Assembly: GCA_031265715.1 (NCBI GenBank)
Contig: JAISCG010000153.1
Span: forward strand, 1-26,320
DNA length: 26,320 nucleotides
Source of the DNA: Holosporaceae bacterium
Lineage (GTDB): Bacteria > Pseudomonadota > Alphaproteobacteria > UBA3830
Direction of reading: 5' to 3'
Shown here: positions 13,878-16,964 of the stretch, piece by piece
How positions within the stretch are numbered: position 1 is the first letter of the stretch
Layout: each line of letters starts with the position of its first letter
The notes under the pieces: generated by a model
Database searches by the model: none
What the model was told of the DNA's origin: nothing
The model's input: only the letters and a program-made list of their open reading frames with translations
Made by a program: the position numbers and the translations under genes

Positions 13878-16800
13878 CTACTTTAAGAGTGTCTCGGTCA
13901 TAATTGCGTCTTTCACCGGACCATCACGAAGTCTATCTAACTGTACGATAGCTCCGTGAGCAATAAGACATTTCGCTAAATCAAAATCATTTTGTTCACA
14001 GGCCAGTTCAAGAAGACTGACTTCACGTCTGACACCAAAACCTGCTAGCGGGTCGATACCGTCATAATATTCAAATCTTACGTTCGGATTAGCGTGATAC
14101 CGATCTATAAAGAGCCTCGCACAATCTGCGTTAAACGAATTGATGCGATTGACGCCTTTTGTACAAAAAGCAGCAAACAAAGTTTCCCTACCGGAAAAAG
14201 GATCTGTAAGAGATACCTGCCCCGTATCGAGGAAAAACATCCACACCGGGAATACACCTTTCTGGATGGCGCGATGACAAACGTTTGGGACGGAACTCAT
14301 AGCCGTTGCCTGATGCTTTTCCATATTCAGTACCATAAGAGGACGACCGGTGTTTTCAGCAACTTGAGCAATAGCAAAATACCTGCTCAGAAGCGAGAAA
14401 GCAAAGTGAGTTTTTGAAACCGTGACGAGACTATCGTGAAAATTTTTCATTATAAAGTCCTTAGTGACATCGTAAAGATTAATATCTTTGTAGTCTGGCG
14501 CTAACTGCGGGTAATGATCGAGAAGAAAGGATAAAATACTCATTTCTGAGGCAGCGTATGCAGCTTTAAAGAGAGCTAAATATTGTTGAGGACTCGGTAA
14601 TACTCCACCGGGATACATATCCAGACATACACGAAATATTTCAAGGTTGCCCCCCTTGACAGCGTCCAATGAAAGTTTCTCGAAATTTTCCGCAAAATAT
14701 TCCGGTCCGCCCGATGAGGTCAACAGACCTCTAAAAACTCGAGGTAATGCTGAAAGTGCCGCAATTTTCAGCGCATCTCCTACGGTTATCGGACGAGATT
14801 CAAGCACTACCTCAGCATTCGCTCCATGCCAAGGAGGAGCTCCTGCTCTTCCGTTATATTTCGGACAAAGTGCCATCAATATCGGACTAAACCTCTCGGG
14901 ATGTTTCCAAAATATTTGCTCAAACTCTTGCTTAGCTTCTGCTATGGCCGACTGCTCAGCTTCTGCCCTATCTGCTTGCCTAGCTTCTGCCCTATCTGCT
15001 TGCTCAGCTTCTGCCCTAGCTGCTTGCTCAGCTTCTGCTATAGTCGCTTGCTCAGCCTTTGCCCTAGTCGCTTGCTCAGCCTTTGCCCTAGTCGCTTGCC
15101 CAGCTTTTGCCCTAGTCGCTTGCCCAGCTTTTGCCCTAGTCGCTTGCTCAGCCTTTGCCCTAGCCGCTTGCTCAGCCTCAGCTTTATCCCATACCTCAAG
15201 CTTTTTTACTACAGTCTTTTTCACAAACTTTTCCTTAAGCTCTAACTTTTCCTTAAGCTTTTCTCTCAATACCGGATTGCTCAATATGGGCATCAACTTT
15301 TCCTCAAGTTTTTTCCTAAGCTTTTCTCTAGATGCCGGATCTCTCAATTGCGGATCTCTCAATACCAGATCTCTCAATACCAGATCGATCAATTCCGGAC
15401 CGCTCAGTTCCAGGTCTCTCAATTCCAGATAGATCAATGCCGGATCGTTAAATGCCGGGTTGCTCAATGCCGGATCGATCAATTTTAAACCACCCTCCAT
15501 GTAACGGAAAATAACCCCTTCGAAATGATCTTTTTCAGAATAATCAGACAGATAATCTACTTTTAATTCGGTGAGCTTATCTCTAAGAAAGAGGAGCAAG
15601 TCCTGATGTACTTTTAAAAAAAGCGACGGATAAGTTGCCGGCGAAGAACTGGGTACAGTGAATACCGGAAGAAATTCGTTTACGGTATCCTGCAACAAAT
15701 TAAGATTATCACCACTGTCGTCGGAAAATGAAAATCTCAAATGTCCTTTTTCCCAGTCGCGTACAGTCTTACAAAGATGAAAGGTCGCATGGAGTAAAGA
15801 AAAAACAGTACACGTTCTTGACTGCACGTAACCCCTACCTCTCGGTCTCTTACTTGCGTCATGGTATCTAATCGATATCATCCTTTCCCTCTGCTCTGGC
15901 GGAAAATATTGTACGAGCTCGTCAACAAAAACTTCATTGGCAAACATTTCTCCGACTCTATCGTAAAACCGAAAATTCATACAAGCTGTTACAATCTGTT
16001 GTAATGTATTGGCGACACCTATTATCGGGCTATAATCACGCACCAACAGATTCAAACCCAATGCCCTACTGGTCGGATCCAATTCTTCTGCGATACTTTT
16101 CAAGCGCTCACCACTAAATGCCAACACTGCATAACTATACGGCAGCAAATACATCAATCTATGAGATACGAAGTTGGTCAATATATCACCGAGCTGAACT
16201 TTACGATCCGGACGGGCAATAAAAGCATCTCCCTCCAGCTCAAGTCTTCCCATCTCTTGCTCAAAATCTTTTATCTCTTGCTTAAGTTTTCCTATTCTTC
16301 GCCCAAGGTCTCCATTCTCTTGCCCAAGGTTTCTCTTCTCTTGCTCAAGTTCCCTCTTCTCTAAGTCAAATGGTTCCTTCTCTGCATATAGCTTAGATAG
16401 TTCTCGCTCTAGTTGACTAAGCATACTCTGATATTTTTCAAGTTCTTCCGACTCTGCCGGATTAAGCGTACGTCTACCTTCTTGAAGTTCTTCCGGTTCT
16501 ACTTGATCAAGCGTACTCACATCTCCTTGAAGTTCTCTTACACGTTCTTGAAGTTCTTTTTCATGTGCTAGACGTTCGTCTATCTCGCGTTGATATTTGT
16601 CTATTGTGCCCTGAAGTTGTCCGTTTATCTTGCTCTGAAGTCCCTCTATCTCGCATTGACGTTTGTCCATATTACATTGAAATCTGATTATCGTGTCTCG
16701 ATGTTCACCCATCGCCTTTCGAAGGTCTCTCATTTTTCCCGCAAGTGCTGCTCTATTTTCCGCCTCCCCTGCCTCAAGCGCTGCCAGACCATTCGCACAA

Positions 16801-16964
16801 TCCATAAGTGTGAATCCACAAGACTTCTCCGAATTAGAGTCCGCAAACAACTCCGCCACCCTGGTATCCTCAGCGGGCAGTGAAACCACCTCAGCATTCC
16901 ACAAAAACGCCGTACCAACTAAACACACACACAGCCCCGACACGGAGCAAAACTCTTTTTTCAT
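13878..16964 (-). CDS. Large hypothetical exported protein with coiled coils, three tandem-repeat modules and degenerate C-terminal ankyrin-like repeats; candidate host effector
   Basis: 3.1-kb open frame with a signal-like N-terminus (MKKEFCSVSGLCVCLVGTAFLWNAE). The ATG at 16964 has a GGGGA SD; the alternative ATG is at 16979. Ankyrin-like segments: SLDAVKGGNLEIFRVCLDM, HRAIQKGVFPVWMFFLDTG and SLLELACEQNDFDLAKCLIAHGA. Confidence 0.88.
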   Translation of the reverse strand: MKKEFCSVSGLCVCLVGTAFLWNAEVVSLPAEDTRVAELFADSNSEKSCGFTLMDCANGLAALEAGEAENRAALAGKMRDLRKAMGEHRDTIIRFQCNMDKRQCEIEGLQSKINGQLQGTIDKYQREIDERLAHEKELQERVRELQGDVSTLDQVEPEELQEGRRTLNPAESEELEKYQSMLSQLERELSKLYAEKEPFDLEKRELEQEKRNLGQENGDLGRRIGKLKQEIKDFEQEMGRLELEGDAFIARPDRKVQLGDILTNFVSHRLMYLLPYSYAVLAFSGERLKSIAEELDPTSRALGLNLLVRDYSPIIGVANTLQQIVTACMNFRFYDRVGEMFANEVFVDELVQYFPPEQRERMISIRYHDASKRPRGRGYVQSRTCTVFSLLHATFHLCKTVRDWEKGHLRFSFSDDSGDNLNLLQDTVNEFLPVFTVPSSSPATYPSLFLKVHQDLLLFLRDKLTELKVDYLSDYSEKDHFEGVIFRYMEGGLKLIDPALSNPAFNDPALIYLELRDLELSGPELIDLVLRDLVLRDPQLRDPASREKLRKKLEEKLMPILSNPVLREKLKEKLELKEKFVKKTVVKKLEVWDKAEAEQAARAKAEQATRAKAGQATRAKAGQATRAKAEQATRAKAEQATIAEAEQAARAEAEQADRAEARQADRAEAEQSAIAEAKQEFEQIFWKHPERFSPILMALCPKYNGRAGAPPWHGANAEVVLESRPITVGDALKIAALSALPRVFRGLLTSSGGPEYFAENFEKLSLDAVKGGNLEIFRVCLDMYPGGVLPSPQQYLALFKAAYAASEMSILSFLLDHYPQLAPDYKDINLYDVTKDFIMKNFHDSLVTVSKTHFAFSLLSRYFAIAQVAENTGRPLMVLNMEKHQATAMSSVPNVCHRAIQKGVFPVWMFFLDTGQVSLTDPFSGRETLFAAFCTKGVNRINSFNADCARLFIDRYHANPNVRFEYYDGIDPLAGFGVRREVSLLELACEQNDFDLAKCLIAHGAIVQLDRLRDGPVKDAIMTETLLK
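14929..15183. repeat. Coding tandem repeat, 24-nt unit, 10 full copies plus a partial (AEQATRAK-like octapeptide)
   Basis: Units start at 14929, 14953, 14977 ... 15145, 15169; consensus TGCTCAGCYTYTGCCCTAGTCGCT. Confidence 0.97.
15337..15486. repeat. Coding tandem repeat, 15-nt unit, 10 degenerate copies (xLxD[P/L] pentapeptide)
   Basis: Units such as GGATCTCTCAATTGC, GGATCTCTCAATACC, AGATCTCTCAATACC and AGATCGATCAATTCC, in 15-nt phase. Confidence 0.9.
16239..16364. repeat. Coding tandem repeat, 21-nt unit, 6 degenerate copies (coiled-coil heptads)
   Basis: CTCAAGTCTTCCCATCTCTTG / CTCAAAATCTTTTATCTCTTG / ... / CCCAAGGTTTCTCTTCTCTTG, encoding LEKRELE QEKRNLG QENGDLG RRIGKLK QEIKDFE QEMGRLE. 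Confidence 0.85.

Follow-up and report, generated by a model that had tools for sequence, protein, structure and literature searches.

A probably exported ankyrin-type protein with three tandem-repeat arrays, likely a lineage-restricted binding protein, in a Holosporaceae bacterium from the termite gut

The gene, its modules and its paralogues

The DNA analysed here (26,320 nucleotides, positions 1 to 26,320 of contig JAISCG010000153.1 in the Holosporaceae bacterium assembly GCA_031265715.1, called "the window" below) carries on its minus strand, between lon and topA, a gene for a large protein assembled from several dissimilar modules. Its open reading frame (ORF) runs over 13878..16979 and specifies 1033 amino acids without internal stops (P0001; residue numbers below follow this numbering, which starts at the upstream ATG at 16979). 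Translation likely starts at the second ATG, at 16964 (MKKEF..., 1028 aa), since M[KR][KR] opens all three paralogues described below at the aligned position and the database gene call is also 1028 aa long. The features of the locus are collected in Table 1. An initial annotation, made from sequence alone, had described three in-frame tandem arrays (24, 15 and 21 nt), a coiled coil with heptads encoded by the 21-nt units, a Lys/Glu-rich helix and an unassigned globular region of about 250 aa. All of these are real; Tandem Repeats Finder (TRF) returned the three arrays as they had been described, at the same coordinates, and the Lys/Glu-rich segment contains 24% Lys and 18% Glu over residues 557–606. 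When the units of the 24-nt array are read in register, neighbouring octads are identical in pairs.

Table 1. Features of the gene and its immediate flanks (positions in the window)
Feature	Position	Strand	Description and basis
Sigma-70-like promoter match	17001..17028	-	TTGACG-16-CATAGT, score 9/12; in the 240-nt gap after lon
Coding sequence	13878..16964	-	1028 aa + stop, single intact open frame
Sec-type signal-peptide-like leader	16872..16964	-	MKKEF..., h-region GLCVCLVGTAFL; heuristic script + alignment
Insertion 1, coiled coil	16218..16760	-	Two long helices, residues 74–158 and 174–254, modelled as an antiparallel hairpin; missing from paralogues
21-nt tandem repeat, 5.4 copies	16238..16350	-	Heptads E[KM]xxL[EG]Q, within the second coiled-coil arm; TRF
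Domain A, all-alpha, family-specific	15465..16196	-	Residues ~262–505
15-nt tandem repeat, 9.8 copies	15338..15484	-	Encodes 5-aa xL[RSI][DN][PL]; TRF
Lys/Glu-rich helical segment	15162..15338	-	Belongs to insertion 2; composition + model
24-nt tandem repeat, 9.3 copies, 89% matches	14953..15176	-	Encodes 8-aa A[AT]RAKAEQ; modelled as a long helix or hairpin; TRF
Domain B, divergent ankyrin-repeat domain	13881..14894	-	Residues 696–1033, ~6–7 irregular helix pairs
9-bp GC-rich inverted repeat	13815..13845		GGCAACTCC ... GGAGTTGCC; 33 nt past the stop; read directly from the sequence

The gene is one of four copies in this genome. The other three, which lie on contigs C81, C151 and C62, are shorter (572, 564 and 543 aa, respectively) and free of repeats, and the paralogues are 29–53% identical. 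In the alignment all four proteins have the leader and the domains A and B; residues 57–275 (the coiled coil) and 501–697 (the 5-aa repeats, the Lys/Glu-rich helix and the 8-aa repeats) are found only in the window's copy. Because the paralogues hold leader, A and B only, with A abutting B without a linker in each of them, both the coiled coil and the repeat block are insertions, and only this copy has them. A search of the genome for other copies of these modules, and hence for a source, found none. The 15-nt array begins exactly at an A–B junction motif, L-x-D-P-[AL]-L, that is single in the paralogues, and this suggests that the array expanded in place. The A–B junction is therefore a permissive site, for the homologue P0012, from a metagenome, carries a Pro/Lys-rich insert of a different kind at that very point. 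The paralogues stand singly beside housekeeping genes (trmB and trcR in one case, a gene for an outer-membrane protein in another and one for a short-chain dehydrogenase in the last), so that TrcR and an outer-membrane β-barrel protein adjoin two of them; both indicate an alphaproteobacterium. Directly upstream of the C62 paralogue lies a gene for another eukaryote-like repeat protein, a 348-aa BspA-type leucine-rich-repeat protein with a signal-like N-terminus (LRR_5, 1.4e-31; L006:2546-3592, minus strand).

The codon usage of the gene had been noted as an impression to differ from that of housekeeping genes, and comparison with core genes and length-matched ORFs bears this out. Of 75 length-matched ORFs it has the largest relative synonymous codon usage (RSCU) distance, and its G+C content at third codon positions is 0.39 (lon, 0.47; topA, 0.53); the paralogues are likewise low (0.30–0.40). 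The sequence of the locus is present in one sequencing run only. The de Bruijn contigs of that run end inside the 24-nt array (15046–15159), and their k-mer depths of 14–17, with one at 30, are compatible with the assembled copy number but are no proof of it.

Domains A and B and the repeat arms

The C-terminal domain B is a divergent ankyrin domain that is recognisable at the level of the family profile. The Pfam Ank models do not match P0001 at E≤0.01, none of the 85 Ank_2 matches in the genome falls within 13878–16979, and the metagenomic homologues P0009 and P0012 have only weak, partly sub-threshold Ank matches. The kinship emerges when the family is considered together. A profile of domain B retrieved only ankyrin-repeat (ANK) chains from the PDB (5.9e-9 to 8e-3), the best of them being the ANK region of latrotoxin (5.9e-9), followed by TRPA1, ankyrin-1/2, FEM1B and designed ANK proteins; and in an exhaustive search the family profile found, beyond the family itself, canonical ANK proteins in which as many as 18 stretches were matched. 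Similarly, hhalign paired the last two repeats of domain B with the window's own canonical Ank protein at 86% probability, and the top Foldseek matches for domain B are all designed ankyrin repeat proteins (DARPins) or ankyrins. The ankyrin-like C-terminus that had been proposed is thus real, although in this copy it lies below the Pfam thresholds.

Domain A, on the other hand, is unassigned. Modelled alone, it is predicted to be all-alpha with a mean predicted local distance difference test score (pLDDT) of 71.7 and a predicted template modelling score (pTM) of 0.69. Foldseek comparison of domain A gave matches at background level only (best E 0.38 against the PDB and 0.54 against the AFDB clusters), as did a VIA-wide search; a shape search of the ESM Atlas reached template modelling (TM) scores of no more than 0.37, also background, and a feature search of the same atlas and a sequence profile search of the PDB gave nothing usable. 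No catalytic signature was found in domain A by either sequence or fold searches, and no known enzyme was matched. A pair of Cys residues that is conserved in the family (motif KVHxD-xC-xx-C) is Leu/Leu in the window's copy. We also considered that A might be a diverged copy of B; hhalign gave this relationship a probability of 0.2%, and we rejected it.

The AlphaFold2 model of the full-length protein has a mean pLDDT of 69 and a pTM of 0.60, with values of about 90 in A, higher than for A modelled alone and in favour of A–B packing, and 80–94 in B, and contains two long helix pairs, 74–158 with 174–254 and 569–620 with 636–692. Ankyrin structures align over residues 403..1031 of this model, that is over the end of A and all of B, and skip the insert between them. 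When A and B were presented as separate chains, the predicted interface score was 0.85, compared with 0.08 for the best control, with more than 300 predicted contacts. Of 80 solved complexes 58 attained that mark, as did 2 of 110 mismatched pairs; these counts apply only roughly here, since we used alignments of our own for A and B. A and B are therefore predicted to form one compact unit. Because A and B are predicted to be packed together and the paralogues have no linker, the repeats look like protruding helical hairpins and not like spacers between A and B. The initial annotation had suggested that length-variable spacers set the distance between A and the ankyrin domain, and this idea finds no support in the comparison with the linker-less paralogues, in the packing in the models or in the interface test. 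Another possibility for the 5-aa repeats, a pentapeptide β-helix (PF00805), was rejected, as there was no Pfam match at E≤0.01 and the repeats were modelled as short helices, not strands.

Leader, distribution and genomic surroundings

The N-terminus is organised into n-, h- and c-regions in the manner of a Sec signal peptide. We used a heuristic script that looks for a charged n-region, an h-region of 7–15 residues, small residues at –3 and –1 and the absence of a lipobox, and applied it to this protein and six relatives. By these measures the leader qualifies as a Sec (type I) signal peptide: it contains 2 Lys/Arg, a 10-residue h-region with a mean Kyte-Doolittle hydropathy of 2.45, and no lipobox. 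No other segment of the protein is strongly hydrophobic. Candidate cleavage sites are VVS|L or LPA|E. The leader is kept in the three paralogues, whose sites are VVA|M, AVA|M and SAA|M, plus AIA|V, of the AxA type. The protein is thus probably exported, as had been proposed from its signal-like N-terminus. The genome encodes two secretins, two TolC-like proteins, VirB10/TrbI and three T2SSE-type ATPases; VirB4 (PF03135) and FlhA/SctV had no match in the assembly, which is 83% complete. One of the secretin genes lies in the window at 1248–2858 on the minus strand (PF00263, 1.1e-24), and its product is a conceivable outer-membrane exit for Sec-exported proteins.

There are about 25 ankyrin ORFs in the genome (these account for the 85 Ank_2 matches), and at least 20 of them open with a near-identical leader, MKKN[RH]xISxxKVLLSAxF[VI]LSTVEQ[GS]SS; examples are found in the window at 22851–23306 (plus strand) and at C32:6908, C136:6584, C8:1278 and C138:4813. 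This shared leader is distinct from that of the family described here and represents either a lineage-specific conserved export signal or recent duplication of a cassette. Since so many of the ankyrin ORFs carry it, export of ANK proteins seems to be the rule in this organism. A leader motif common to our gene and the other ANK genes was sought and rejected: a strict scan matched members of the family only, and the other genes use the different leader.

The family has a very narrow distribution. The protein sequence had no match in 40 relatives, and a profile of domain A had none in 57 other genomes of the order. Word-indexed searches with residues 250–1033 and with the C81 paralogue recovered only the genome's own proteins, and scans of 185,579 species genomes and of the JGI metagenomes with a pattern built from the four paralogues gave no confirmed relative. 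An exhaustive profile search of 1.84 billion representatives identified about ten true relatives (P0007–P0012, P0014–P0016 and P0019), whose contigs are all short and unbinned and come from a single JGI sample and a single SRA run. One of them, P0014, resembles a fragment of an orthologue, with about 50% identity across the C-terminal 225 residues. A 1471-aa ORF with only a faint NUDIX match adjoins P0012 on its SRA-derived contig (L011:127-4542, minus strand). With paralogues at 29–53% identity and the orthologue fragment at about 50%, compared with 76–84% for Lon within the genus, the family evolves fast. The searches of relatives, by pattern and by profile, found no homologue of housekeeping function in free-living bacteria. 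The initial description of a modular, fast-evolving protein is thus supported; the family is also lineage-restricted, and export is probable.

The genome was assembled from a termite-gut metagenome (1.26 Mb in 168 contigs, 43% GC). Upstream of the gene on the same strand is lon (17205–19529), preceded by clpX, and topA (11309–13720, plus strand) is convergent with it, as had been recognised from the start; beyond topA lie dprA, plsY and a TLC ATP/ADP transporter gene. The gene had also been credited with a promoter of its own. A sigma-70-like site is indeed present, but it is weak, and such sites are no commoner here than in shuffled sequence (9 found versus 5.7 ± 2.2). Downstream, the inverted repeat at 13815–13845 is followed by a T-run on the minus strand and is a possible terminator between the convergent genes; its loop is 13 nt long, so the terminator scanner made no call. 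Just 3' of topA, at 13739–13794, is a REP (repetitive extragenic palindromic)-like element that is present in multiple copies (word depth 166 versus about 15 in its flanks). Two further runs of the same study contain it too, and so does the metagenome contig of homologue P0007, which the shared element links to a related organism.

In 11 congeners (L024–L034), neither topA nor dprA nor a homologue of our gene occurs within 8 kb downstream of lon. In G001 this position is occupied by murJ/parB, and in G008 about 1 kb without ORFs is followed by lgt/recG/phaC. What follows lon thus varies within the genus, and our gene lies at a synteny break. On contig L009, topA was not found within 750 nt of the orthologue fragment.

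Interpretation and relation to known ankyrin proteins

The explanation that we favour, with modest confidence, is that the product of the gene is a binding protein without enzymatic activity that is exported through Sec and belongs to a fast-evolving, lineage-restricted family, and that its repeat arrays are local expansions forming helical arms. The anatomy, the paralogy, the narrow distribution, the ankyrin kinship of B and the want of a match for A are observed, whereas export, the packing of A on B, the hairpin geometry, a binding function and the site of action are inferred. The setting is a host-associated one, given the TLC transporter in the window, the roughly 25 ankyrin ORFs and the termite-gut source. 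The family core would consist of the leader, the helical domain A and the divergent ankyrin domain B, with A and B folding together into one alpha-helical unit. This copy would have gained two insertions at permissive sites, an antiparallel coiled-coil hairpin between leader and A and a helical excursion at the A–B junction made up of the 5-aa repeats, the Lys/Glu-rich helix and the 8-aa repeats. The arrays would have grown where they now stand, as short units multiplied by strand slippage or unequal crossing-over, and the arms would project from the core and not separate A from B. After export the protein may bind a partner at the bacterial envelope, at the surface or beyond; the host would probably be a termite-gut protist or the gut epithelium, and the arms could give reach, oligomerisation or a variable surface.

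It is possible, though rather unlikely, that the protein instead stays in the periplasm, where its A/ankyrin unit would bind bacterial envelope proteins and never contact a host. Rickettsia RARP-1 has a Sec signal, a non-globular middle and C-terminal ANKs in common with it and was shown to be periplasmic and not secreted (bioRxiv 10.1101/2022.02.23.481736), and such a location would agree with our finding no dedicated outer-membrane route for the protein. On the other hand, the family was found in none of the 57 other genomes of the order, which would be odd for an envelope housekeeping factor, some 25 mostly leader-bearing ANK ORFs in a genome of about 1.3 Mb are typical of host-interaction repertoires, and the atypical codon usage also speaks against this reading. 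Retention in the inner membrane is a further, very improbable reading, in which the hydrophobic segment would be an uncleaved signal anchor and the coiled coil a stalk holding A and B in the periplasm. The coiled coil does follow directly on the hydrophobic segment, and the candidate sites VVS|L and LPA|E are weaker than those of the AxA type in the paralogues; yet the short h-region, of about 12–14 residues, suits a signal peptide and not a membrane span, and the sites in the paralogues are clear.

The initial annotation envisaged a translocated effector in which A is catalytic and the repeats are spacers that tune its distance from an ankyrin targeting domain. We regard this as improbable. 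The domain order (unknown domain, repeats, ANK) is what such an effector would have, identical neighbouring repeat units suggest that length change is ongoing, some polar residues of A are conserved, and VirB10 and secretins are encoded in the genome. However, any spacer is missing from the paralogues, the predictions place A and B in a single unit, A matches no enzyme by sequence or fold, and the Cys pair that the family conserves is Leu here. Type IV and type I secretion substrates do not use an N-terminal Sec leader, and such a leader is what this protein has. A more ambitious proposal, to which we give little credence, is that A is a new fold clamped onto the ankyrin domain as a built-in partner, onto which two slippage-prone arms were grafted in this paralogue, making a tunable, contingency-type host-contact protein of a protist or termite symbiont. 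If this were true, A and B together would be a binding module that has not been described before, and the length or surface of the arms could vary within symbiont populations.

Several observations weigh against the exported binding protein that we favour. Residues N335, E362, E410, S417, H458 and K468 of domain A are conserved and polar, and A may contain an enzymatic site that goes unrecognised. The leader could be an uncleaved membrane anchor, and no route across the outer membrane was identified for this protein in a genome that is only 83% complete. Both tests of A–B packing are predictions from shallow alignments of 10–14 sequences. The arms were modelled with a pLDDT of only 33–85 and the hairpin turns with less than 50, so the geometry of the hairpins is weakly determined.

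The nearest architectural analogue is RARP-1, in which a disordered central region lies between a Sec signal and C-terminal ANKs (bioRxiv 10.1101/2022.02.23.481736). Both proteins come from small-genome, host-dependent bacteria and combine a Sec signal, a long non-globular middle and a C-terminal ankyrin domain, and neither has a predicted enzymatic domain. The middle of RARP-1 is disordered, whereas here there is a folded, family-specific domain A, predicted to pack on the ANK domain, plus helical repeat arms; and RARP-1 is conserved across its genus, whereas the present family was not found in 11 congeners. The comparison is one of described architectures: there was no family match in NCBIfam or Pfam, and the exhaustive search gave the protein's own family and then generic ANK proteins. 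Other ankyrin-repeat proteins with signal peptides are known from sponge symbionts (Nguyen, Liu & Thomas 2014, as cited in bioRxiv 10.1101/608950) and from phages, where ANKp has an N-terminal signal peptide and reduces phagocytosis (bioRxiv 10.1101/608950). These share with our protein the union of export leader and ANK, in families that are expanded and fast-diverging in host-associated bacteria. Their ANKs are canonical and recognised by Pfam, however, whereas in the present copy Pfam fails and the ANK domain is fused to an unknown domain and three repeat arrays.

The type IV and type I Ank effectors of Anaplasma, Legionella, Coxiella and Orientia (for Orientia Anks, PMC4315096) are similar in that ANKs are joined to lineage-specific domains, in some cases with tandem repeats, in intracellular bacteria. 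They differ in having C-terminal signals and no Sec leader, whereas the present family has a conserved N-terminal Sec-type leader. Surface proteins of the M-protein/PspA type also combine an export leader and a heptad coiled coil with tandem repeats that are short and in frame, but no cell-wall anchor or choline-binding module is present here and the bacterium is a Gram-negative alphaproteobacterium. The resemblance of the coiled coil to the PspA and SMC models of NCBIfam is compositional (17–27 bits versus cut-offs of 300–850).

We conclude that this is an elaborate but fairly ordinary "eukaryote-like" protein of a symbiont and not an effector of a new type. Among the candidate factors for host interaction in uncultured symbionts, exported ankyrin proteins are the most frequent, and a partner is known for hardly any of them. 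The locus described here shows how such a protein can be remodelled: a compact core was kept in four paralogues, and one copy grew arms from 15-, 21- and 24-nt units at two sites. It also carries a warning that an order of domain, repeats and domain need not mean that the repeats are a spacer, since the flanking domains here are predicted to be packed against one another. Domain A is an unclassified fold that is worth a structure; otherwise the case adds to the known class of exported ankyrin proteins.

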